The notes: a model not told the origin generated them from the letters alone. Positions 2,813-14,945 are shown, numbered from the stretch's first letter. The stretch is 64,000 nucleotides of DNA from Capsulimonadaceae bacterium (GCA_965215505.1 OZ244065.1:800001-864000), one strand, 5' to 3'. Program-made: numbers and translations.

Positions 2813-5800
2813 CTAGAATTTCAGCACGCCTTCCAGCGTTACCGTGTTGTTCTTCTGGTCGTCGGTCGAGACGCCGATGCGGTAGCGGCTGGTGATGTCG
2901 TACCCCAGTTTCAGGGTGTACTGCGGCGGCAGCAGAGTCTGGTCGGTCACGCCGCGCGCCCCGAAGGAACGCGAGAAGGTGACGTCCACTTTGGGTCCGA
3001 TCTGCTTGGTCACGGTCACGAAGACCGGCTGGTTCGGGTCGTAAGTAACGTTGACGTCTTCCAGCCCCAGCGCGCCCGCCAGCGACTCGGTCAGCGGCGT
3101 CAGCAGGGTCGGGATGGCAACGTTCGCGAGGGCGGTCTTGAACTGGTCCTCCAGGACGGTCTGGCCGCCTGACCCGCCCCCGGCCGCCGCCACCAGGGCA
3201 CCGGCGGGGATCAGGGCGGCCACCATCTGCGCCTTGGTCAGCCCGGCGGGGGACGAGTAGAAGTCGTCGTGCAGCTTGGCCGGGTCGGTCGAGCCGAGCA
3301 GGCCGTAGATGTGTACGGTGATGGTGTAGCGCTGCCGGTCGCTGCTGAGGGGGTTGGTGCCGCCGAACGCGGTGTTCCCCTGCGGGGCGGTCTCGCCGAT
3401 GCCGCTCCCCGCCACCGTCCGGTACTGCGCCAGCGTGGCCTGGGTGGGCGAGACCGTCGTCTGCGCCCAGATGTTGACATTGGTCTGGAGGCCCGGCACG
3501 CCGTTCTCATCCTGCCGGGGGTACTCCACGCGGACGACGTTGTTCCCGTTCCCGTTGAGGCTGATCGCCTCGGTGTCGCGGGGCTTGACGATTTTCAGCA
3601 GCGTCGAGGGCGGCAGGATGAACTGGCCGCGCTCCACCTGCAAGGTCCCGGCGAAGCGCGGGGCGAGCAGGCTGCCCTGGAGCCTCACCTGGCCCCCCGC
3701 CTCCGCTTGCAGCAGCCCGCCCTGAACGCGCACGGTCTTGGTGCGCCCGCCGCCGAGCTGCAAGACCACGTCGAACGTCGGATCGAATGGGGAGGGCGCT
3801 TTCGCGGCGTCCGCGCCGCCCGTGGGCGAGGGGAGCGTCGCGGTCGCGTTGCTGATCACGATGGGCGCGTCAGGGGGCGTGGCGATGACCGGCGTCTCGA
3901 ACGGACCCGTGACCGTCAGGACGCCGTTGATGGTCGCCTTCAGGGCGCTCTGGAAACTCTTCGCCAGCAGGTTCTGCTTGCTGTTCTCGTCCACGCCGAG
4001 GTCTTTGGTCGTCAGCCGCAGGCTGAGACTCTGGCTGCCGAGGAGGCCCGCGCCACCCGTCAGCGTGAAGCCGCCGCCTTTGCTGGACCGACCGGTGAAC
4101 GTCTGGACGGTCGCCTTGTTATCCGCAAGAACAACGATCGCGTTGATTTTGTTCACCGAAGTGTCGAAGCCGGCCAGCCCGAAGGACGCATCGGAGAGGG
4201 TCGCCAGGCCCGACAACTGCCCGCCGCCGAAGTTCGCGGTGACCGACAGGCGTCCGCCCGTCTTCTTCGGGTCCACGACGCCGGGGCTGAACCCGGCCAG
4301 CGCGGAGAGGTCTTGGACGTTCAGGACGGCCCGCAGGTCCTGGTCGGGCAGGCGGGCGGCCTCGCGATTCGCCGCGCCCAGGCTTGTGGCCGTGATCAGA
4401 GGCAGGCTGCCGGAGAGCGTCGCGACGAGGCGGCCGTTCTTGAACGCGGACAGCTCGCTCACGGTCAGGATTTTGGGAGCGTCCGGCGTGGCCGAGGCCA
4501 GCGTGATCGCGCCGCTGCGGATGCTGTCCAGGGCATAGGCGGGCGTGTCCGCGCTGACGACCTCACTGGCCGCCGGTTTGGCAGGCTTCTTGGCACCCTT
4601 CTTCCCGGCCTGTATGGCGATGACGGCCGGTTTCGGGGCGGCGCCTTCGGGATTGGAAAGACTGACCGAGGCAACCAGGTTGGGCGAGCGGGTCGGGCCG
4701 GACGCGTCAACGGACAGGGCGCTGACCTCGCGCGGCAGGGCGCGCAGGAACGGGACGGCAGGCGGGAAGGCGGTCCCGAGGAGCGCCAGCGGGATGTTGG
4801 AGGCGTCCAGAGTGGCGGCGATGTCGCCGTCTAGATTCGCCGTGCCGGAGACGTTCAGGAAGGCGCGCTCGTTGGTCGCGCGGAGCTGATGCACGGTGAC
4901 GGTCCGGTCGCGGTACTCCACGTCCGCCGAGGCCGCCCCGACCGGGACATTGGCCGCCAGCAGGTCGGTGGCGGCGGCCTTGACCGACCCGGAGGGCCGC
5001 GCGCCCGCCGTGTAGGCGAGGGTAGCCGTCAGGCCGGCCAGCTTTGTGTCGCCCAGCGTCAGGGCCTTGGCGCTCAGGTCCGCCCGCGCCGTCAGGGCGG
5101 AAAGCGGCCCGTCCAAAGTCAGGCGCGGCAGGGCGAACATCCCCGAGATGGGCTGCGGCAGGTCCGAGACCCGCGCCAGGAGGCTCTTCCCGGCGGCAGT
5201 CTGGGCGAACCGGCTGGCCCGCAGAGTCGCGAAAACGTGCGAGAGCCGTTCCGGGGCGCTTAAGGGGATGGCTCCCGCCAGGGCGAGCGCCCCGACTCGG
5301 TGCGGGTGGGCTGGCGTCGGGAGTGTCAGGCGCAGGGAATTGACGTCGTACTCCACCGGCCCGCCGGCCTCGCCGACGTAGTCGGTCGGGGGCGAAACGA
5401 TGAACCGCCACGGGCCGCCGGTCTGCGTCAGGACGCCGTCGTCGTAGCGGCCCGCCAGCGCAAGCGGCGCGAAGGTCTGGCCGTCCACGACGAGGTCAGG
5501 CAGGGTGAGCGAGGTCAGGGCCACATGGGGGGCTTGCGCGGTCCCGCTGAAATGGCCGGCGAAGCCCAGCGTGCCGTCCACGTCCGCCGAGGGCAGCAGC
5601 AGCGAGTCGAACCGGGCGAGGTCCAGGCCCGAAGCCGCGAAGTCCGCGCGCAGCAGCCCCGAGGCCGTCCGCTCCCCGCTGGCCCGCAGTGTCGCCCCCT
5701 CCGACCGGACGAGGCCGTTCTGGACGCGCAGGACGCCCAGGGCGTAGCGGACGTCGGCGGCGACGAGGTCCAGGCGGTAGTTCCCGACCGTGGCGTCCGA

Positions 5801-8029
5801 GACGTCCGCGTGGCCCGAGACGACCGGCGTCTTCAGCCGCCCCGTGACGCGGAAGTCGCCCGCCGCCGTCCCCGACAGGTTTGGCAGGCTGGCCGTCAGG
5901 GTCCGCGCGGTCTTCGGGGAGGGGGCGGAGGCGGACTCGGCGAGGCGCAGGAAGTCGGCCACGTCGCCTTTGGAGACATGGACGTTCAGGGCCAGCAGCG
6001 GGTCCGCCCCCGCGAGCGGCGTCACCGCGCCGTCAAGTCTGGCCTCGGTGGGGAAGCGCCGCAGAGTCACGTCCCGCAGCCGGACGCCGGCAAGCCCCGC
6101 CGAGATGTTCCCGGTGACGAGGTCGGCCGAGTAGCGCCCGAAGCGCGGCTCGATCAGCCGCGCCGCTCCGACCGCCTGGGGCGCGCTGGCCGGGCCGATC
6201 ACTTTGCCGTCGAAGGCCGCCCGCCCGCCAAGTGCGAGGTTGGAATACGGCCGGAGAAGGGCGGCGACGTCAAGCCCCGCCGTCCGCACGGTCAGGTCCC
6301 AGCGCCCCGTGCCGACCGGGACCGTCCCGCTGACGGCCGCCGTGCCGCTGGCGTCCCGTGCGACCATCCGGGTGAGCGTGATCGCCCCGCCCTGCGTCCA
6401 GGCGACGCGGCCCGTGAGCGAATGCAGCATCGTCCGGCGCAGGCGCAGGTTCGCGGCGCTGACGTTCGCGACGACGGAGAGGGGCCGCCCCTGGTTGTCG
6501 GCGAGGAACTGCACGTCCGCCACGCCGCCGAGGTTCAGGTTCTTCGCCTTGACGGCGGGGGGCAGGCGCAGGGCGGCGAGGTCCACGCCTTTCACCATGC
6601 CCGCCAGCAGCAGGACGGGTTTTGCACCGGACAGGTCTACTGTCCCGCGCAGGGCGGCCTGCCCCGTGCCGTTCAGCCGGAAGGTCACGGAGGGGACGGA
6701 GAGGACTCGATTGGCATAGGTGGCCTGCACCGCCAGGTTCGTCGCCTGGTTGCCGGCATACACGACGGCGGGGAGGGCGGCGCTGACGGTGATGGTGGGG
6801 CTGCCCGGCGTCCCGGTGAAACCGACACGCACGGGACCCGGCGCGACCGTGAATCCGGGCGGCAATTTCAGGACCGGCACGGCGGCGGCCAGCCGGACCG
6901 GGTCCAGCCGGGGCGACGAGGCCGAGACGGCGACCTGCGGGTGCTGGAAGTCGAAGACGGTGCCGGACACCGCCAGTGTCTGCCCCGCCAGGGCGGCGCG
7001 GGCGTCGAGGGAGAGGCCCGCGCCGGTGAAAGACGTCGTCCCGTTCAGGTCTTCCAGCGGCAGCGCGAGGATCTTCTTGTTTGAGGCCAGGATGGTGACG
7101 TGGCGCACGGCTAGGGTGCCGGAAAGGTCCAGCAGGCGGCCCGGCGCGGGCGTGGCCCCCTCGTTCGCCAGCGTGACGTCGGCGTCCGCCCGGCCCCGGA
7201 CGATCCGCGCCTGCGGGAAGGCTTTGAAGTAGTCAGTCCAGTACGCCGCGTCGGCGTTCGTCGCGACGACGTGCCCTCGGTAGCGTCCCGCCACCAGCCG
7301 CGACACGTCGCCGTTAACCAGCAGAGAATTGAAGCGGTTTTCCGATGCCGTCCCGCGCCCGCGCACGTCGAAGTAGACGTTGCGCGTGGAGAAAAAGTCC
7401 GCCGTGCCCTCGACGGCGGTCAGCGTGTTCAGGGCGGGCCGCTTGCCCCGGTCGGGGGCGTCGAAGTCGCGGAACCGCAGCAGCCCATCGTGTACGAGGA
7501 TGCGGCCGACGAACGGCATGCTCGTCGTCTTGGTCTTGGGCTTAATGAGGTCGCTGAAGTTGTACCGGGTGGAGGAGAGGCGCTCGACGAGAACGGTGGG
7601 GTGGTCCACCGTGATGTCGCCGATGGCGTGGGCGGCGTTGCCGCTGTCAAAGAGGAGGGAGTGCAGGTTGTAGTCAACGGTCAGCCGCCTGGCCGTCAGC
7701 GTCGCCTCGCCGCCGCCTTGGGCGAAGGTGGCCTTGTTCGCGATGGCGATGTCGGTGAGGACGAGGACGCCGCGTTTGCCGAAGTCCGCCCCGCCGATAT
7801 GCACCTCATGGCCGGTCTGCCGGGTCAGTTCGGCCTCGGCGATGGGGACGAGGTGCGCGCGCAGCAGGTGATAGACCGAGGCGAAGTAGACGCCCGCCGA
7901 GACGGTCAAGCCGACCACCGGCAGCACTGCCAGCCCGCGCAGCGTCCACCGGGCGGCGGCGGGCAGTCGGGGACCGGGGCGGCTTCTCTGTCGCCGCCCT
8001 TTAGGCTCTCGCTGACGTGGTTGACTCAT
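2813..8029 (-). CDS. tamB: TamB/AsmA-like (DUF490) translocation and assembly module protein
   Basis: 1738 aa, single N-terminal TM anchor, long beta-strand-rich repeats, C-terminal DUF490-like end with terminal Phe, upstream of an Omp85 gene. Confidence 0.8.
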   Translation of the reverse strand: MSQPRQREPKGRRQRSRPGPRLPAAARWTLRGLAVLPVVGLTVSAGVYFASVYHLLRAHLVPIAEAELTRQTGHEVHIGGADFGKRGVLVLTDIAIANKATFAQGGGEATLTARRLTVDYNLHSLLFDSGNAAHAIGDITVDHPTVLVERLSSTRYNFSDLIKPKTKTTSMPFVGRILVHDGLLRFRDFDAPDRGKRPALNTLTAVEGTADFFSTRNVYFDVRGRGTASENRFNSLLVNGDVSRLVAGRYRGHVVATNADAAYWTDYFKAFPQARIVRGRADADVTLANEGATPAPGRLLDLSGTLAVRHVTILASNKKILALPLEDLNGTTSFTGAGLSLDARAALAGQTLAVSGTVFDFQHPQVAVSASSPRLDPVRLAAAVPVLKLPPGFTVAPGPVRVGFTGTPGSPTITVSAALPAVVYAGNQATNLAVQATYANRVLSVPSVTFRLNGTGQAALRGTVDLSGAKPVLLLAGMVKGVDLAALRLPPAVKAKNLNLGGVADVQFLADNQGRPLSVVANVSAANLRLRRTMLHSLTGRVAWTQGGAITLTRMVARDASGTAAVSGTVPVGTGRWDLTVRTAGLDVAALLRPYSNLALGGRAAFDGKVIGPASAPQAVGAARLIEPRFGRYSADLVTGNISAGLAGVRLRDVTLRRFPTEARLDGAVTPLAGADPLLALNVHVSKGDVADFLRLAESASAPSPKTARTLTASLPNLSGTAAGDFRVTGRLKTPVVSGHADVSDATVGNYRLDLVAADVRYALGVLRVQNGLVRSEGATLRASGERTASGLLRADFAASGLDLARFDSLLLPSADVDGTLGFAGHFSGTAQAPHVALTSLTLPDLVVDGQTFAPLALAGRYDDGVLTQTGGPWRFIVSPPTDYVGEAGGPVEYDVNSLRLTLPTPAHPHRVGALALAGAIPLSAPERLSHVFATLRASRFAQTAAGKSLLARVSDLPQPISGMFALPRLTLDGPLSALTARADLSAKALTLGDTKLAGLTATLAYTAGARPSGSVKAAATDLLAANVPVGAASADVEYRDRTVTVHQLRATNERAFLNVSGTANLDGDIAATLDASNIPLALLGTAFPPAVPFLRALPREVSALSVDASGPTRSPNLVASVSLSNPEGAAPKPAVIAIQAGKKGAKKPAKPAASEVVSADTPAYALDSIRSGAITLASATPDAPKILTVSELSAFKNGRLVATLSGSLPLITATSLGAANREAARLPDQDLRAVLNVQDLSALAGFSPGVVDPKKTGGRLSVTANFGGGQLSGLATLSDASFGLAGFDTSVNKINAIVVLADNKATVQTFTGRSSKGGGFTLTGGAGLLGSQSLSLRLTTKDLGVDENSKQNLLAKSFQSALKATINGVLTVTGPFETPVIATPPDAPIVISNATATLPSPTGGADAAKAPSPFDPTFDVVLQLGGGRTKTVRVQGGLLQAEAGGQVRLQGSLLAPRFAGTLQVERGQFILPPSTLLKIVKPRDTEAISLNGNGNNVVRVEYPRQDENGVPGLQTNVNIWAQTTVSPTQATLAQYRTVAGSGIGETAPQGNTAFGGTNPLSSDRQRYTITVHIYGLLGSTDPAKLHDDFYSSPAGLTKAQMVAALIPAGALVAAAGGGSGGQTVLEDQFKTALANVAIPTLLTPLTESLAGALGLEDVNVTYDPNQPVFVTVTKQIGPKVDVTFSRSFGARGVTDQTLLPPQYTLKLGYDITSRYRIGVSTDDQKNNTVTLEGVLKF

Positions 8030-8039
8030 GCAGTTTGGA

Positions 8040-8060
8040 GGGCGGACACGAGGTTCGCCC
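8040..8060. repeat. Degenerate REP-like palindrome (same family as 40351-40412 and 41291-41315)
   Basis: GGGCGGACACGAGGTTCGCCC differs by 2 nt from GGGCGAACACAAGGTTCGCCC; lies in the lipA-tamB gap. Confidence 0.6.
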
Positions 8061-8067
8061 TCCCAGT

Positions 8068-9024
8068 TCAGGCGGCCTTCTCCGCCCGCATCGCCAGGAA
8101 CTTGTCACTGAACTCCTTGGCGTTGTACGAGGACCGGATGAACGGGCCGGAGGCGACGAACAGGAAGCCCATCGCCTCGCCGATCTCCTTGTATTCGGCG
8201 AAGATGTCCGGGTGGACATACTCCACCACGTCCAAATAGTTCTTGCCCGGCTTCAAGTACTGGCCGATCGTGACGGCGTCCACGTCATGCGCCTTCAGGT
8301 CTTCCATAAGGGCGACGACCTCCGCCTTCGTCTCGCCAAGGCCGACCATCAGGCCGCTCTTGGTGTAGATGCTCGGGTCGGCGGCCTTGACGTACCGCAA
8401 GAGCTGGAGGGAGCGGGCGTAGCGGGCCTGCGGGCGCACCTGCCGGTAGAGGCGCGGGACCGTCTCGATGTTGTGGTTGAAGACGTGCGGCTTCGCATCA
8501 ACGACGGTCTGGATGTTCGCTTTGTTCCCCAGAAAGTCGGGCGTCAGCACCTCGATGATCGTCTCGGGCAGCAGGCGGCGGAGCCACTGGATCGTCTCGG
8601 CGAAGTGGCGGGAGCCGCCGTCGGGCAGCTCGTCGCGGTTGACGCTGGTGACGACGGTGTGTTTCAGGCCCAGGATCGCTGCGCTCTCGGCGACGCGGCG
8701 CGGCTCGTCGGCGTCCAGCGCCCCACCCTTCCCGGTCTTGACCGCGCAGAAGCGGCAGGCGCGGGTGCAGGTGTCGCCCAGGATCATGAAGGTGGCAGTC
8801 TTCTTGGACCAGCACTCGCCGAGGTTCGGGCAGCGGGCCTCCTCGCAGACGGTCACCAGGCCGGACCGGCGCATCAGCCCTTCGACCTCCTCGATCCCCT
8901 GCCGCTTGGGCAGCTTGATCGTCAGCCACTCCGGGATGCGGCGGTTGAGGACCGGGCCGACCGTGCGCGCGGGCGGGGACGGGAGGCGGGAGGGGAGGAC
9001 ATCGAGTTGGATCAGTTCAGCCAT
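8068..9024 (-). CDS. lipA: Lipoyl synthase
   Basis: CEEARCPNLGEC (Cx4Cx5C), radical SAM CTRACRFC, C-terminal RSSY motif. Confidence 0.97.
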   Translation of the reverse strand: MAELIQLDVLPSRLPSPPARTVGPVLNRRIPEWLTIKLPKRQGIEEVEGLMRRSGLVTVCEEARCPNLGECWSKKTATFMILGDTCTRACRFCAVKTGKGGALDADEPRRVAESAAILGLKHTVVTSVNRDELPDGGSRHFAETIQWLRRLLPETIIEVLTPDFLGNKANIQTVVDAKPHVFNHNIETVPRLYRQVRPQARYARSLQLLRYVKAADPSIYTKSGLMVGLGETKAEVVALMEDLKAHDVDAVTIGQYLKPGKNYLDVVEYVHPDIFAEYKEIGEAMGFLFVASGPFIRSSYNAKEFSDKFLAMRAEKAA

Positions 9025-9046
9025 GGATTTGCACTTTCTGGCATTG

Positions 9047-9076
9047 ATTATAGCGTTTTCGGGGGCGCAAAGTCAA
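9047..9076 (-). promoter_or_regulatory. sigma70-type promoter for lipA
   Basis: TTGACT-N18-TATAAT on the minus strand; the -35 box contains the TGA stop of the upstream NTPase gene. Confidence 0.7.
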
Positions 9077-11127
9077 CGCGCTTCCTTTAACTGGACTGTT
9101 TCAGGCAACGATGAGGGCAATGCGCTCTTTTGCTTTTGCGCCGCAGAGCTGAGGAGCTGACGCGCTATTTCGCGCTCTTCTGCGGAGAGGCACAGCAAAA
9201 CGCGATCGTCATGGGTCTCCATGTACACAACAGCGGCTTCCATCAGGCGCAACGTCTGGCCGAACACCTCAACTTGTGCGGCTGCTTCCTGCCACTGCTT
9301 AAGCCAATCTTTTCTGACTGAGTCGCTGAATGCTGGGTGCAGCAAGGACGGGACTATCGTCATCAAGCCGACAGCCAAAGAAGAGGAAAGATCATGTTGC
9401 AGGCTGGTCTCCAGTAGATCGGCGATCTTATTTTTCCAGTCTCGCTTTTCATTGTGGGTACACAACAAAGCGACGGTGATGTCAGCCATGTAAGTCCCAG
9501 TCAGAATAAACCATCCCATCCACTTGTCAGGCTGCGCTGTGTCTGACATGTCAAAGACGCGTATCACTTTATTTAGCTGGTCTAGATCACAATCAATCAC
9601 CAACTTCCCTAGCCAAAGGCTACTCATATCATAAACTTTCCCTGGTTCCATAAATTCCAGGCGACCCTTCGCGGCTTGATCTCCCGCCGCGACGGCTTCT
9701 TCAAGTCGGTTAAGCTCCAACAAACACAGACTCATGCACATCCAATCATCGGCAGCACCGCGAATGGCCACTAATTCTTCCGCAATCCGAAGGGACATCC
9801 CGTAATTTTTGACACTGAAAGATGAGAGGAGATCGTTTTGACAGGCCGCGACGCGGGGATCATCGTTTTCACTCTCTAAAGTATCCAGCGCGTACTGCAC
9901 ATACTCGCGCTCTAAAGGTGTTCCAGTCTCAAGCAGCGATGAATAGTGCTGCCGTAGTTCAACCGATGTGTACCACAGCCTCAAGAAATCCACGAACAGC
10001 TTGATTGGGCCGCCGCGACTCTTTTTAATGTCTATGCACATCCGCATCAGTGGCTCGCGCAGTTCATAGTAGGACTCGCGCCCGACCGCCTCCGAGACTA
10101 CATAGCCCTTCGCCCGCAAGTCTTGGAGCTGACCGGAGGCCGTCTGCTGCGTGACGAAGCAGCGTTTGGCGATCTCCTTCACGGGAACCGCGCCGCGATG
10201 ATCGCAGAGGAAGTCCACGATTTTGCGCTGCTGGGGGGAAAGCCATTTCATTTTGGCCTGATAGTACGGCGTCAGCTCATCCAGCATGTGCATGAACGGG
10301 TCCACGAGTTCATCCAGGGCTTCGCGCGTTAGGAACTGGGAAAAGATGACGTAGACACGCGGGTTGCCGCCGGCCAGGTGATGGACGGCGCGGATGCGGG
10401 CACGTCCCATGGGGGCCTGGATAAAGGCGCAAAGGTCGCGCTTGTCTTCCAGATCAGCGATCTTCGTCAAGAGGGCCGTGGCATCATCTAACGAAAGGTC
10501 TTCGAGCAGGTGAATCGTGAAGAAGCCGTAGAAGGGAGAGGTACGACGCGAAACGTCTTTGAACAAACTCTGCGCCGTGGCGATAATGATCCAAAAAGGG
10601 TCTTCCTGGATGAATGAGCGCAGCCGCTTTTGGCCGACCTCCCCCATACCTTCGAACAGGTCATTTAGGTTTTCTGCCAGGACGAGCAAGGCGCGTTCCC
10701 CGACGTAGCCTTTGAGCACGGCGGCAGCGGTTTGTTCGGCTTCCGCCGCCGGAAGGCTGTACAGGGCCTCGATTTTTTCCGCCAACGCGGCATCTTTGTA
10801 TTCGGCCTGCAATGCCGTGAGGAGGCGGAGCAGGAGATCAAGGAATGAAGAGACACCCCATTCTTCTTCCCGCAGCCACGCAACGCGCAGGCGGTCACGC
10901 AAATCTTCTCGCCGACAAACGCGGTGATAGATCAGCGAAACCAGGTGTGTTTTGCCGATGCCGCGCGGCCCAATCAGCAGCGAGTAGTGTTTGGAAGGCG
11001 TCAGCGCACTTTCGGCGATGACTTCCACGACTTCCTGAGCGAGTTCTTCGCGCTGGACAAAAATATCTTCCAGCGTCTTGGCGCTCATCAGGCTGGGCGT
11101 GAAATAGGACAAAAAATCAGCCCTCAT
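9073..11127 (-). CDS. STAND-like P-loop NTPase with winged-HTH and C-terminal helical/TPR-like region
   Basis: Walker A GPRGIGKT, atypical Walker B LLVLAENLN, GGNPR (GxP) motif, MarR-like wHTH (LSPQQRKIV..VKEIAKRC..TASGQLQDLRAKGYV), TPR-like helices; visibly lower GC than flanking genes. Confidence 0.8.
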   Translation of the reverse strand: MRADFLSYFTPSLMSAKTLEDIFVQREELAQEVVEVIAESALTPSKHYSLLIGPRGIGKTHLVSLIYHRVCRREDLRDRLRVAWLREEEWGVSSFLDLLLRLLTALQAEYKDAALAEKIEALYSLPAAEAEQTAAAVLKGYVGERALLVLAENLNDLFEGMGEVGQKRLRSFIQEDPFWIIIATAQSLFKDVSRRTSPFYGFFTIHLLEDLSLDDATALLTKIADLEDKRDLCAFIQAPMGRARIRAVHHLAGGNPRVYVIFSQFLTREALDELVDPFMHMLDELTPYYQAKMKWLSPQQRKIVDFLCDHRGAVPVKEIAKRCFVTQQTASGQLQDLRAKGYVVSEAVGRESYYELREPLMRMCIDIKKSRGGPIKLFVDFLRLWYTSVELRQHYSSLLETGTPLEREYVQYALDTLESENDDPRVAACQNDLLSSFSVKNYGMSLRIAEELVAIRGAADDWMCMSLCLLELNRLEEAVAAGDQAAKGRLEFMEPGKVYDMSSLWLGKLVIDCDLDQLNKVIRVFDMSDTAQPDKWMGWFILTGTYMADITVALLCTHNEKRDWKNKIADLLETSLQHDLSSSLAVGLMTIVPSLLHPAFSDSVRKDWLKQWQEAAAQVEVFGQTLRLMEAAVVYMETHDDRVLLCLSAEEREIARQLLSSAAQKQKSALPSSLPETVQLKEAR

Positions 11128-12296
11128 TCGACGGCACCTCTTTGCAGCCGCCAGTAGCGCTGGATCAATGGGAAATAGAAGCGATAGTTGCCGTCAGTCT
11201 CCTGTGTCAGATAATGGTCACGCTCAAGCAGGGAGAGCAGAGCGCGTGTCTGTTCCTTATCGGCCGTGATAATTCGCGATTTAAGTCGGTTGAACACCTC
11301 CACGAATGGCATGGCGGCATCAGCGAATGCAAGGACATCCAAAACCGCCAGCGCCAGGGGGACCTTGTCCGCGCTATAGTAGGAGGAGAGACGGTCAATA
11401 TAGTGGCGAAGTTGCCAGCGATCCTGGGGGTCGGTTAATCCCCGGCTGATGATGGTTTCAACGGTCCCCACATCCGCAGTCCCTTTCGCGCTCTTGAGTT
11501 GCCTGACGACATGATGGATATAGAAGGGTATAAAATCCACACCTTGCGCGATGGCCTCAGCCACCGCCTCGGCATCTTTGGCCTCGATCTTAGTCCCATG
11601 CAGCAGGCGGCGCGCGAGTTCGCTGGCATCTTCGGGAGCCAGGGGCGGCACCTCCTCGACATACATATCGTTGATAGGGGCATTGCTGTACCCTGCCGCC
11701 CGCAGGGCTGTGAGAACATGATGCAGGCCGATCGAGCCTGTGTAGACCATCCGCAGGCGTGGGTGCATCTGACGTAGGGCACGCAGCGTGTTCAGAATCT
11801 CCATCGCGACGTTTTCGCCGTTTCCCTTCTTGATGTTGTCCAGCATCATGGGGATCTCGTCCCATTGAAAGATCAGCATGGCTTCTTGCTCTTCCATGAG
11901 GTCCGCAATGATGCTGGTTAGCAGATCTTTCCAGAAGGGGGCAGCGACTTCAGGGAACTTGACAAAGTTCTCGAACTCCGCGCCCTTCAACTCGGATAGG
12001 AATTTCCGTGTTCGGGTTGTGTTCCGCTTTTTCGTGCTGAGAAACGCCTCGACATCGGCGAAGACGAGTTCGGCAAACTCCAGCGGCGTGTGTATATCCT
12101 CTAAATCGTGATAAACAAGCAGTTTTCCGGGGCGCGCTTCAGCCCGCATCTTTTTCAGAATAGAAGTCTTTCCAATCCGCCTCTCGGAAGTCAACACCAG
12201 ACTTTGGACTTCCAACACGTCCCATAAGGATGCGATCAAGTCATCGCGGCCGATAATATCAGATGCTGCGATTTCGCCGCCAGGATTAGCTTGCAT
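11124..12296 (-). CDS. STAND/AAA-like P-loop NTPase with C-terminal winged helix
   Basis: IIGRD, Walker A SERRIGKTS, Walker B LIFQWDE, YTGSIGL, IPFYI; RBS GGAG before ATG at 12296; ATGA overlap with the downstream NTPase. Confidence 0.8.
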   Translation of the reverse strand: MQANPGGEIAASDIIGRDDLIASLWDVLEVQSLVLTSERRIGKTSILKKMRAEARPGKLLVYHDLEDIHTPLEFAELVFADVEAFLSTKKRNTTRTRKFLSELKGAEFENFVKFPEVAAPFWKDLLTSIIADLMEEQEAMLIFQWDEIPMMLDNIKKGNGENVAMEILNTLRALRQMHPRLRMVYTGSIGLHHVLTALRAAGYSNAPINDMYVEEVPPLAPEDASELARRLLHGTKIEAKDAEAVAEAIAQGVDFIPFYIHHVVRQLKSAKGTADVGTVETIISRGLTDPQDRWQLRHYIDRLSSYYSADKVPLALAVLDVLAFADAAMPFVEVFNRLKSRIITADKEQTRALLSLLERDHYLTQETDGNYRFYFPLIQRYWRLQRGAVE

Positions 12297-12317
12297 AGTT
12301 TTATCTCCTACAACCCT

Positions 12318-12345
12318 ATTATACACCAAAATTGATGTACGTCAA
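12318..12345 (-). promoter_or_regulatory. sigma70-type promoter for the NTPase pair
   Basis: TTGACG-N16-TATAAT on the minus strand. Confidence 0.65.
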
Positions 12346-12431
12346 TATTAACTTATGTCACCCAAGAGAATTATCCCCTACTTGGTTTCTGCAACGAACG
12401 AGCTTCTACGGCTAAAAACGTCCGCGTTCGG

Positions 12432-12460
12432 TTGACAAGGTGGCCTTCATCACTTATAAT
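12432..12460 (+). promoter_or_regulatory. Consensus sigma70 promoter for hppA
   Basis: TTGACA-N17-TATAAT, perfect consensus. Confidence 0.85.
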
Positions 12461-12491
12461 AGCAACAAGAACAAAATGAGCCTGGCCGACG

Positions 12492-14945
12492 GTGGCCGAG
12501 GTAAGGAGTGCTGTGTTGTCCAAGAAAGTCCGGCGGACGCGGCCGATGCTGAGTTTCTTTCCCTTGGCGGCGGCCCTGCTGCTGGGGAGCGCCCGCGCCT
12601 CGTATGCGGGCGGCGAGGGGGTGATACTCCCCGCCTTCACCACGCCGGTGTACGGCGTCCTGACGTTCGTACTCCTGACCTCCCTCATCGCCCTGGCCTA
12701 CGGCTTCGTCCTGCGGTCCCAGGTGAGCCGCCTGTCGCCCGGCACGCCGGCCATGCAGGAGGTTGGCGCGGCGATTCGGTCGGGCGCGCTGGCCTACCTC
12801 GCCAAGCAGGTCCGGACGATGCTGCCGCTGGTGGCGATATTGGCCGTACTGCTCGTCTTTCTGTATTACGGCCAGTACGGGCTGACACTGGCCCTGAGCA
12901 TCGCCGCCGCCTTCCTGGCGGGCGTCGTGCTCTCCTACACGGCGGGCTATGTCGGCATGGGCATGGCGGTGATCGGCAACCAGCGGACGGCCAACCAAGC
13001 GCTCACGACCTACAAGGGCGCGCTGGAGACGGCCTTCAAAAGCGGGGCGGTGGCCGGCATGATGACGGTCGGCCTGGGCCTGCTGGGCGCGACGGTGATC
13101 TTCCTCATCTTCCGCAGCGACGCCATGAAGGTGCTGATCGGCTTCGGGTTCGGCGGCAGCCTGGCTGCCCTGTTCATGCGCGTCGGCGGCGGCATCTTCA
13201 CCAAGTCGGCGGACGTCGGCGCGGACCTTGTGGGCAAAGTGGAGCAGTCCATCCCGGAGGACGACCCGCGCAACGCAGCGACCATCGCCGACAACGTCGG
13301 GGACAACGTGGGCGACTGCGCGGGCATGGCCGCCGACGTGTTCGAGTCGTACCTGGTTACGCTCGTCGCCGCCCTGCTGCTGGGGGCGGCGGTCGGGGCA
13401 CGCACCGGCAACCCGGCCTTCACACTGCCCTTGATCCTGTTCCCCCTGGTCATCCACGGCGTCGGCATCCTCGCCTCGGTCGTGGGCGTCGCCTCCCTGC
13501 GCGGCAAGGAGGACATGAGCCTTGACCCCCTCGTGCCCATCAACCGGGGCTTCTGGCTGACCGGGGCCATCGCGACGGCCCTGCTGGTCGGCGCGGCGTT
13601 TCTCCTGCCGGGGCTGCGGGACGGCATTACAGTGGACGGGCGGACCTATGGCCCCGTCTATTTCATCGCCGCCACAGTGATCGGCGTCATCCTGGCCCTG
13701 GTCATCGGCAAGCAGACCGAGTACTTTACCGGTTCGGACAAGCGGCCCGTCAACGAAGTCGCGCACGCCTCACAGACCGGGGCGGCGACCCTGATCCTCT
13801 CGGGCTTTTCCCTTGGCCTTGAAAGCGCGGCGTGGAGCGCCGCCGTGATTGTCGCCGCCCTGTTCTCCATCGTGCTGCTGTTCGGCGGCAGCGCCCTCCT
13901 GTCGGCCTACGGCATCGCGCTGGCCGGGCTGGGGCTGCTGACCACGACGGGCTATGTCCTGGCGATGGACACCTTCGGCCCGATTTCGGATAACGCCCAG
14001 GGCATCTTCGAGATGTCCGGCGCGGCCCGCGAGCAGCATTCAGGGCGCAACGGGAGCGCGCCGACGGCCATGACGGGCGACAAGGTGGTTTCCAAGCTCG
14101 ACTCGGCGGGGAACACGACCAAGGCCCTGACCAAAGGCTTCGCCATCGCGACCGCCGTGATCGCCGCCGTGGCCCTCTTTCAAGGCTTCGTCTCCGACGC
14201 GGGCCTGACGCCCGCCGACTTCAGCCTGGTGCAGCCGCGCGTCTTCATCGGCCTGCTCATCGGCGGCGCGGCCCCGTTCCTGTTCTGCTCGTTCGCCATC
14301 AATGCCGTCTCGCGGGCGGCTTTTCAGCTCGTGGAGGAGGTCCGGAGGCAGTTCCGCGACATCCCCGGCATCATGGAAGGCACGGGGAAGCCCGACTACG
14401 CCCGGTGCGTCGAGATCGCCACGGCGGCGGCGCAGAAGGAGCTGCTGGGGCCGGGCATCCTCGCCATCTGCCTGCCCATCCTGGTCGGCTTCGGCCTGGG
14501 CGCGGCGGCCCTCGGCGGCTACCTCGCCGGGGCCATCGTGACGGGGCAGCTCATGGCGGTCCTGCTGGCGAACTCCGGGGGCGCGTGGGACAATGCCAAG
14601 AAGAAAATCGAAGACGGGATGTTCGGCGGTAAAGGTGGCGACCAGCACAAGGCCAGCGTCATCGGCGACACGGTGGGCGATCCGTTCAAGGACACGGCGG
14701 GGCCGGCCCTAAACCCGCTGATCAAGGTGATGAACCTGGTCGGCGTCCTGATCGCGGGCGTCGTCGTCAGCACGGCGGGGAACGGCCTGGTCCGGGGCAT
14801 CGTCGTGGTCGTCATGGCCGCGCTGCTGGCGGGCGCGATCCTGTTCTCCAAGCGCGGTGGCCTGGCCGACATGGCGGACGTCGAGGCCGAGGGGGACGGG
14901 CCGGAGCAGGTACAAAAGCAGGAGCAGACGTCTTCGCGGCGGTGA
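12492..14945 (+). CDS. hppA: Membrane-bound proton-translocating pyrophosphatase, K+-independent type
   Basis: GGGIFTKSADVGADLVGKVE, EDDPRN, DNVGDNVGD, GDTVGDPFKDT; GNTTKA carries the Lys of K+-independent enzymes; start could be 12516 or 12546. Confidence 0.95.
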   Translation: MAEVRSAVLSKKVRRTRPMLSFFPLAAALLLGSARASYAGGEGVILPAFTTPVYGVLTFVLLTSLIALAYGFVLRSQVSRLSPGTPAMQEVGAAIRSGALAYLAKQVRTMLPLVAILAVLLVFLYYGQYGLTLALSIAAAFLAGVVLSYTAGYVGMGMAVIGNQRTANQALTTYKGALETAFKSGAVAGMMTVGLGLLGATVIFLIFRSDAMKVLIGFGFGGSLAALFMRVGGGIFTKSADVGADLVGKVEQSIPEDDPRNAATIADNVGDNVGDCAGMAADVFESYLVTLVAALLLGAAVGARTGNPAFTLPLILFPLVIHGVGILASVVGVASLRGKEDMSLDPLVPINRGFWLTGAIATALLVGAAFLLPGLRDGITVDGRTYGPVYFIAATVIGVILALVIGKQTEYFTGSDKRPVNEVAHASQTGAATLILSGFSLGLESAAWSAAVIVAALFSIVLLFGGSALLSAYGIALAGLGLLTTTGYVLAMDTFGPISDNAQGIFEMSGAAREQHSGRNGSAPTAMTGDKVVSKLDSAGNTTKALTKGFAIATAVIAAVALFQGFVSDAGLTPADFSLVQPRVFIGLLIGGAAPFLFCSFAINAVSRAAFQLVEEVRRQFRDIPGIMEGTGKPDYARCVEIATAAAQKELLGPGILAICLPILVGFGLGAAALGGYLAGAIVTGQLMAVLLANSGGAWDNAKKKIEDGMFGGKGGDQHKASVIGDTVGDPFKDTAGPALNPLIKVMNLVGVLIAGVVVSTAGNGLVRGIVVVVMAALLAGAILFSKRGGLADMADVEAEGDGPEQVQKQEQTSSRR

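Follow-up and report, generated by a model that had tools for sequence, protein, structure and literature searches.

The stretch of DNA analysed here, called the window, is 64,000 nucleotides (nt) long and comes from a Capsulimonadaceae bacterium (GCA_965215505.1 OZ244065.1:800001-864000). On its minus strand it carries a pair of P-loop nucleoside triphosphatase (NTPase) genes, here called A and B, which are flanked by lipA and the H+-pyrophosphatase gene hppA. Gene A (11124..12296) encodes 390 amino acids (aa) from its ATG and gene B (9073..11127) encodes 684 aa; the two open reading frames (ORFs) are joined by an ATGA in which the stop codon of A overlaps the start codon of B (11124..11127), and both P-loops are intact. 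Each ORF has hundreds to thousands of full-length homologues and therefore both are more than chance reading frames. The start of A is fixed by its homologues and by a ribosome-binding site, GGAG, read from the sequence at 12305-12308 on the minus strand. A 401-aa version of A starting from a TTG at 12329 was considered and rejected as the gene start because the aligned homologues all begin with M-[KRQ]-x-NPGG, because the GGAG is 8 nt before the ATG, and because the -10 box of the cassette promoter falls inside the extension. This promoter (12318..12345, minus strand) has a -35 box TTGACG at 12340-12345, a 16-nt spacer and a -10 box TATAAT at 12318-12323, with 11 of 12 positions matching. The GC content over 9000-12400 is 0.47-0.60 compared to 0.62-0.75 in the flanks, and that of the whole insert, delimited below, is 0.541 compared to 0.661 for the remaining window, which makes it the lowest 3.3-kb stretch of the 64 kb. 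At third codon positions the GC content is 0.65 in the cassette and 0.92-0.93 in lipA and hppA, and the lowest-GC part of the cassette (0.49-0.53, 9200-9999) is the C-terminal helical region of B. A preliminary description of this DNA had reported an ATGA-overlapping pair of these sizes between lipA and hppA, with its own promoter and with a lower GC content than the flanks, most so in a tetratricopeptide repeat (TPR)-like region of the second gene, and all of this agrees with what was found.

When related genomes were examined, lipA was present in all 25 that were searched and hppA, with a strict threshold, in 13 of the 25. In the close relative G011, lipA (C142:6371-7312, minus strand) and hppA (7466-9913, plus strand) are 96% and 92% identical to the window genes, and in the close relative G012, lipA (C40:13868-14791, plus strand) and hppA (11273-13714, minus strand) are 94% and 91% identical. 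In both relatives lipA and hppA are transcribed away from each other with about 150 nt between them, whereas the start codons of lipA and hppA in the window are 3,467 nt apart, and no match to A was found in either of these two closest relatives. By BLASTN and alignments, the G011 and G012 sequences align to 8612-9081 and to 12421-12925 of the window, skipping what lies between. Because the closest relatives have a lipA/hppA gap of about 150 nt without A, the pair is an insertion of about 3.34 kb (9082..12420), which replaces about 15 nt of the ancestral spacer of about 150 nt. No terminal direct or inverted repeats and no target-site duplication were found at the ends of the insert, and no recombinase or other mobility gene was found with the cassette. 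The promoters of both neighbours were retained. The lipA promoter (9047..9076, minus strand, TTGACT-18-TATAAT) is host-homologous DNA that overlaps the stop codon of B, and the hppA promoter (12432..12460, plus strand, TTGACA-17-TATAAT, 12 of 12 positions), conserved in G011 and G012, is just outside the insert. The last two sense codons and the stop codon of B are host-homologous sequence. A truncation of B by the insertion was considered and rejected, since its nearest homologues, P0002 and P0003, are 673-674 aa long and cover 97-98% of B. The insertion point is directly upstream of the lipA -35 box (window 9047-9081) and no terminator-like site was seen downstream of B on the minus strand; with the end of B in host DNA, transcription of the cassette may read through into lipA.

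The cassette was found with the same flanks in contigs from four runs of four studies, among them a 3,698-nt contig that covers 8911-12608 with 21 differences and a 4,311-nt contig that covers 8890-13200 with 17 differences. No insertions or deletions inside A or B are listed among the contigs of the four runs, and no empty-site allele (a contig joint 9081/12421) is among the joints listed. The 23 variants listed inside A and B are 12 synonymous and 11 non-synonymous, a ratio that, among those listed, hints no more than roughly at purifying selection. In the other genomes of the genus of the window, A was found in 2 of 23, with 48-50% identity and in different chromosomal places. These data support the pair as an accessory, horizontally acquired and self-contained unit. 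The preliminary description had left room for a pair that is core and syntenic across the phylum, and this is contradicted by the empty site in the closest relatives and by the 2 of 23 genomes. It is most improbable that the pair belongs to the core or housekeeping genes of the lineage, or that it is a functionless passenger in decay: the pair does lie between housekeeping genes and has no known phenotype, but besides the evidence against a core pair, its frames are intact here and in the contigs of the four studies, its catalytic motifs are conserved, and the 12:11 ratio among the 23 listed variants also speaks against it.

The pair is widespread. A search of genome contigs with the single sequence of A found no relative, and a profile from an alignment of the family (alignment A1) was used instead. 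When one genome per species was scanned with this profile (185,579 species), 583 stretches matched, of which 307 encode an A relative; the locus counts that follow refer to the best 80 of these 307. By their labels, 56 of the 80 loci are from cyanobacteria. Three of the 24 others are labelled only 'uncultured bacterium' and the remaining 21 are from Acidobacteriota, Geobacteraceae, Binatia, Planctomycetota, Verrucomicrobiota, Gemmatimonadota, Armatimonadota, Poribacteria, SAR324, Clostridia and Bacteroidota, and the relatives span more than ten phyla, including Cyanobacteriota, Binatota and Bacillota. In all 80 loci a homologue of B lies immediately downstream of A and on its strand. When 1,088 crude ORFs from these loci were clustered, A was in 78 loci and B in 77, and the next cluster was in 14 of the 80; the neighbour clusters that recur follow the synteny of related genera, for example Microcoleus and Floridaenema-type taxa, and no third conserved gene beside A and B was found among the 80 loci. 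In the Microcoleus-type loci (L016-L051) a gene for a 148-aa NADAR-domain protein (scanned in L023) precedes the cassette, and a gene for a putative endonuclease of the Uma2 family is upstream of A in L016 and L023; Uma2 recurs near other cyanobacterial cassettes. A hidden Markov model search of 1.84 billion representatives gave 2,910 clusters (50% identity) of the A family at E <= 1e-3 and 736 at E <= 1e-30, nearly all about 390 aa long. No fused or longer forms of A of 684-2000 aa were found at E <= 0.001, which is weak evidence, and in one relative of 932 aa (P0285) A makes up residues 548-931 and the N-terminal half has no Pfam family. The genome of the window has a second pair, A' (410 aa) overlapping B' (859 aa), on the minus strand at G000:C1:3182887-3186691 (locus L091, 2888-6692), whose products are 28-30% identical to A and B of the window; B' has canonical TPRs, and a BTAD hit in B' (E 7.5e-7) falls within its TPR region. 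Two different A-B cassettes are also present in one Thermosynechococcaceae metagenome-assembled genome (MAG; L046 and L060), and one further genome (G025) has two matches. Genomes with two cassettes suggest that small repertoires, and not single copies, are carried.

In its AlphaFold2 model, with a mean predicted local distance difference test score (pLDDT) of 85.6, protein A has a P-loop nucleotide-binding domain (NBD), a helical domain and a C-terminal winged helix. Its Walker A, SERRIGKTS (residues 37-45, 12162..12188, minus strand), has G42, K43 and T44 invariant in 30 sequences, and its Walker B, FQWDEI (residues 143-148, 11853..11870, minus strand), which is of the canonical hhhhDE form, has W145, D146 and E147 invariant in 30 sequences. 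The modelled winged helix, at about residues 310-385 (11142..11369, minus strand), consists of three helices (312-323, 331-339 and 347-359) and, after them, a beta hairpin (363-373). The best Foldseek matches of A are the archaeal Walker-type ATPases PAB2304 (2qen, E 1.7e-12) and SSO1545 (2fna, E 1.2e-11), with template modelling (TM) scores of 0.64-0.71 along the full length, and further matches are Orc1/Cdc6, the NB-ARC of NRC proteins (NRC2, NRC3 and NRC4), CED-4 and MalT (8bob). By its predicted fold A is a minimal NTPase of the PAB2304/SSO1545 type, similar to those of the origin recognition complex (ORC) and of the STAND superfamily. Family libraries say less. Pfam gave sub-threshold AAA hits and weak winged helix-turn-helix (wHTH) hits (E 0.06-0.1) on A, PF01637 (ATPase_2) did not match it at E <= 1, NCBIfam gave nothing above cut-off on A or B, and no curated Pfam or NCBIfam family naming either protein was found. 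With A, a profile search of PDB sequences detected nothing beyond a P-loop similarity of the Clp type (E 7e-4), and a protein atlas search found only clusters of the AAA_22, AAA_35 and ATPase_2 types.

In protein B (model pLDDT 72.6) an NBD and a helical domain are followed by a MarR-like wHTH, then by TPR-like repeats that are degenerate, and last by a C-terminal domain that is conserved. In its Walker A, GPRGIGKT (residues 53-60, 10948..10971, minus strand), G53, R55, G56, G58 and K59 do not vary among 33 sequences, and in its atypical Walker B, LLVLAENLND (residues 147-156, 10660..10689, minus strand), the same is true of E152 and N153; the Walker B of the divergent paralogue B', LLLLVDN, has the same pattern of an acidic residue followed by N. 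The GxP motif of B is GGNPR. The MarR/ArsR-like wHTH is at about residues 296-360 (10048..10242, minus strand), where PF12802 (MarR_2) matches residues 296-347 with E 2.4e-8 and NF033788 matches with E 3e-10, which is below its family cut-off. On the NTPase part, AAA_16 had E 6.4e-6 but 27.2 bits against a cut-off of 32.6, and PF01637 reached only E 0.11. The TPR-like helical repeats are at about residues 400-560 (9448..9930, minus strand), where the GC content is lowest; no Pfam TPR hit was obtained in B of the window, where this region is degenerate, and a profile search of PDB sequences with B found only TPR proteins. The all-helical C-terminal domain, at about residues 560-670 (9118..9447, minus strand), has R642, L644, L647, E650 and R652 invariant, and no Pfam hit and no usable protein atlas hit were obtained for it. 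Foldseek matched B to SAMD9, PH0952 (6mfv), Orc1/Cdc6, Avs3 and Apaf-1 with E 7e-6 to 3e-4, and NRC2-4 chains match it as well; the TM scores are low, 0.16-0.29, as is expected for multi-domain chains in different poses. With the Walker A, the GGNPR motif, the wHTH, the helical repeats and these fold matches, B has the features of the STAND superfamily, and we assign it as a STAND NTPase on the strength of motifs and model, with AAA_16 below cut-off and the TM scores low. The motifs that had been pointed out earlier, SERRIGKT, WDE and a winged helix in the first protein and GPRGIGKT, AENLN, GxP and a MarR-like wHTH in the second, are thus all found, with invariant Walker residues, and the fold matches support the description of both proteins as STAND- or ORC-like NTPases. 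In the B family (alignment A4) the N-terminal 400 aa or so, which hold the NOD (nucleotide-binding oligomerization domain) and the wHTH, are conserved, the canonical TPRs vary from zero to many, and the homologues are 396-1,262 aa long by crude ORF calls, some of which are cut by contig ends. The proposal that the C-termini of the homologues vary therefore holds for the number of TPRs but not for the last 130 aa or so, which are conserved.

In two relatives, P0147 and L055, A has a TIR_2 domain fused at its C-terminal end (E 3e-22 and 1.7e-23, respectively). L055, a Poribacteria MAG locus (4318-7936), keeps B and the operator, which is described below, beside the A-TIR gene. Between A-TIR and B this locus also has an extra ORF of 217 aa that has no Pfam family. 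The TIR fusions are the strongest hint of the putative role in defence.

Upstream of A there is a putative operator, a conserved sequence motif that is a new element and was not seen in the preliminary description. The 200 nt upstream of A were compared in 75 loci and the window, 76 regions in all, and 71 stretches taken 1 kb further upstream were used as a control. Two or more ACGTA/TACGT cores were present in 62 of the 76 regions and in 1 of the 71 controls, 35 of 45 successive forward cores were spaced exactly 16 nt apart, and the cores were at a median of 43 nt before the ATG of A. The unit consensus is roughly AAWTT-G/A-ACGTAC-A/G-W-T-AAA (TTGACGTAC-type), which comes near to the palindrome TGACGTACGTCA. 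Before the start codon of the A'-B' pair, directly adjacent to it, three TTG-x-GTATA-type units with a 16-nt period could be recognised by eye. In the window three operator-like units of 12 nt with a 16-nt period (12317..12360, minus strand) overlap the cassette promoter. Unit 1, TGACATAAGTTA (12349-12360), has a degenerate core; unit 2, TGACGTACATCA (12333-12344), is the only one with an exact ACGTA core and has the -35 box over it; unit 3, TGGTGTATAATA (12317-12328), has a degenerate core and holds the -10 box. Palindromic ACGTACGT cores are also present in upstream units for which a -35 or -10 role is excluded, and these point to a DNA-binding protein encoded by the cassette. The simplest candidate for this protein would be one of the two winged helices, which would then autoregulate the cassette. 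Earlier it was suggested that the output of the pair may be DNA binding by the wHTH. The conserved, repeated operator lends this indirect support, but the wHTH need not be a separate output domain because in both proteins it is at the intrinsic winged-helix position of the STAND/ORC module.

An ORC/Cdc6-like initiator pair next to iteron-like repeats could also be the relic of selfish maintenance or replication, that is, the remains of a replicon, a partition module or an addiction module of a mobile element that is now fixed in the chromosome. The Orc1/Cdc6-like fold of A and B, direct repeats of fixed period in AT-rich DNA beside an initiator-like gene, and the movement of the cassette between phyla without a recombinase of its own are all in keeping with such an origin. 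We nevertheless regard it as very unlikely, as the related loci and the window all carry the cassette on the chromosome, with two distant plasmid matches and no phage match, its synteny is stable within Microcoleus and the Floridaenema-type group, and TPR sensor arrays and TIR fusions would be out of place in a replicon. In addition, promoter control is suggested by the repeats, which fall on the -35 and -10 boxes.

The reading that we prefer is that of a mobile, self-regulated module of conflict type in which B is the sensor NTPase and A its partner NTPase, and in our judgement it is about as likely as not. Its sporadic distribution, horizontal gain, divergent copies, variable repeat sensor, cores like those of nucleotide-binding leucine-rich repeat (NLR) proteins and TIR fusions all hint at a conflict role. 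B would be a STAND-type switch driven by nucleoside triphosphate, with the variable TPR array as its likely ligand sensor, and A a small canonical ATPase of the ORC or 'archaeal ATPase' type that would be its obligate partner. The sigma-70-type promoter is overlapped by the three to four putative iteron-like sites of TTGACGTAC type with their 16-nt period, and if one of the winged helices binds these sites the cassette would repress or tune its own expression wherever it is inserted. On sensing a cue, most likely an invader protein, B would assemble with A in an ATP-dependent manner, by analogy with sensor/helper NLR pairs, and in the rare relatives with a TIR domain on A this assembly would activate it. 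In the window copy the output could be that the assembled wHTH-ATPases bind or occlude DNA, or it could be an effector encoded elsewhere. A predicted complex of A with residues 1-400 and 560-684 of B scored 0.01, which counts neither way on binding. A more specific version, which we think rather unlikely, is an immune module of two NTPases that has no effector and in which the assembly itself is the weapon. B would then recognise an invader protein and nucleate an ATP-dependent co-polymerisation with A on DNA, and the polymer would block replication or transcription of the invader or of the cell. The iteron-like sites in the promoter would serve the resting pair as a docking platform, by which it is kept dosed and poised, and the TIR domains of some relatives would be a later addition to the same scaffold.

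Several observations weigh against a mobile conflict module. No effector domain is recognisable by Pfam and NCBIfam in A or B of the window, as the preliminary description had also stated, and most of the relatives are without one. In PADLOC-DB v2.0.0 no family matched A at E <= 1, and B matched only the wHTH parts of the Csa3, CasR, CARF and SoFic models, so that the earlier statement that the pair matches no named defence system holds. The setting is not that of a defence island, as had been thought possible. The flanks in the window are housekeeping genes, and 123 neighbour genes from 41 lineage-diverse loci are mostly ordinary, with Uma2 as the commonest Pfam family (9 of 123). Sixty PADLOC families were matched among these 123 genes, none of them by more than three genes, and the matches at E <= 1e-10 are scattered, with raw counts of three for PDC-S03, two for mad2 and one gene each for PD-T4-6, ShosA, Csx1 and MzaA. 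There is no mobile-element context either, since the cassette was found in none of 50,697 phage records and only as two distant hits among 72,556 plasmids. The operator of the window is weak, with its one exact core and two degenerate units (the window is among 14 regions with fewer than two exact cores), and conservation of the motif could partly be conservation of the promoter because the units contain -35- and -10-like hexamers. Finally, the copy of the window is on a long branch in the A tree, apart from the two other Armatimonadota copies (L037, which has a stop codon in its match, was left out of this tree), but a single clade uniting the three Armatimonadota copies was not rejected by the approximately unbiased (AU) test (p = 0.32). 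For this reason the independent acquisition of the cassette rests on the empty site and the location and not on phylogeny.

The main rival of the conflict module is a signalling or transcription module of the MalT/AfsR/GutR type that has no part in immunity, in which B would use its TPRs to sense a protein or small molecule and would, with A, assemble on the repeated boxes to regulate either its own operon only or host genes. This is possible, though on the whole we would not expect it. B has a STAND core, TPRs and a bona fide MarR/ArsR-like wHTH, MalT (8bob) is among the fold matches of A, the repeated boxes overlap the promoter as they do in STAND activators and repressors, and the neighbours are mostly housekeeping genes. 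A signalling role is also in keeping with a census of the STAND superfamily (Lee et al. 2026, PMC13581612), which classifies 589 prokaryotic clades, scores 198 of them as associated with defence by genomic context or effector, and states that clades with and without a part in defence are intermingled. On the other hand, the contexts of insertion are unrelated and no neighbour is conserved beyond the genus level, which argues against a fixed local target. The strict two-core pattern had no match in the genome of the window, a weak test as the operator of the window itself also fails the pattern. No regulon is visible because in five other carrier genomes the two-core pattern was not above a reversed control in any; operator-like matches, with an AT-rich spacer, are at the cassette itself in three of these five. 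The 2 of 23 distribution, divergent copies, variable TPRs and TIR fusions are more typical of conflict systems, and Pfam and NCBIfam searches of A and B turned up no separate domain of the LuxR or SARP kind.

Compared to systems already described, A shares with PAB2304 and SSO1545 the P-loop, the helical domain, the C-terminal winged helix and the size of about 350-390 aa, but the identity is only 18% and PF01637 does not match A. To our knowledge no function has been assigned to PAB2304 and SSO1545, and we know of no obligate TPR-STAND partner and no operator for them. The order of NBD, helical domain, winged helix and alpha-helical repeats in B is also that of PH0952 (Pyrococcus horikoshii), Avs3, Apaf-1 and SAMD9, from which B differs by its hhhhEN Walker B, its extra C-terminal domain and its obligate second NTPase. 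In Avs proteins the effector is N-terminal on the STAND core, whereas B has none there and gave no Avs or NLR hit in PADLOC. MalT and AfsR have a STAND core with a repeat sensor and an ATP-dependent assembly on repeated promoter boxes, which resembles what is proposed here, but their DNA-binding domain is a separate one, of LuxR type or SARP, and they act on defined regulons, whereas A and B have a wHTH only in the NOD position, detectable repeats only at their own promoter, and two NTPases. With Orc1/Cdc6 both proteins share a fold, and repeats are beside the A gene; the chromosomal setting, the overlap of the repeats with the promoter and the absence from plasmids except for two distant hits speak against a replication origin. 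The likeness to the NRC network and to NAIP-NLRC4 is a functional analogy only, a repeat-bearing sensor with a second NTPase, and what they have in common is the NOD fold.

Full-text literature searches found no description of the A-B pair, and the closest were the STAND census (PMC13581612) and nSTAND2 (Kaur et al. 2021, eLife, PMC8195603). As presented by Kaur et al., nSTAND2 is a predicted mobile two-gene system whose two STAND NTPases would form a counter-invader hetero-multimer, with one partner that has eroded nucleotide-binding motifs and variable GT4 or HEPN effectors. Like the genes of nSTAND2 as described there, A and B are adjacent STAND-type NTPase genes in a mobile operon. The same description sets them apart, as the Walker A motifs of A and B are both invariant. 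The only fusion seen in the A-B family is TIR, which is on the small active partner A, whereas the nSTAND2 effectors are described on the inactive partner, and neither A nor B nor any relative that was scanned showed a GT4 or HEPN domain.

If the cassette is an immune or a signalling module, it adds a widespread two-NTPase system without a classical effector, known from at least 307 genomes, each representing one species, in more than ten phyla and with 2,910 A-family clusters, and if the sensor/partner reading is true the pair would be, by analogy, a bacterial counterpart to sensor/helper NLR pairs. Even if it is only a regulator, it is an unnamed, large family pairing that is absent from current family libraries. 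The window is also a clean natural experiment, as 3.3 kb went precisely into a spacer of about 150 nt and the sister genomes provide isogenic-like empty sites. The portable promoter and putative operator (TTGACGTAC-type, 16-nt period) provide a testable handle for DNA binding and autoregulation and may serve as a compact, host-independent regulatory part.

Two minor observations concern lipA. In another genome of the same genus (G013:C1:1085601-1086548) a lipA match that is 80% identical contains one in-frame TAG. In the window an ORF of 1,738 aa (2813-8029, minus strand) adjoins lipA, and by its size and position it may encode a TamB/translocation-assembly-like envelope protein.

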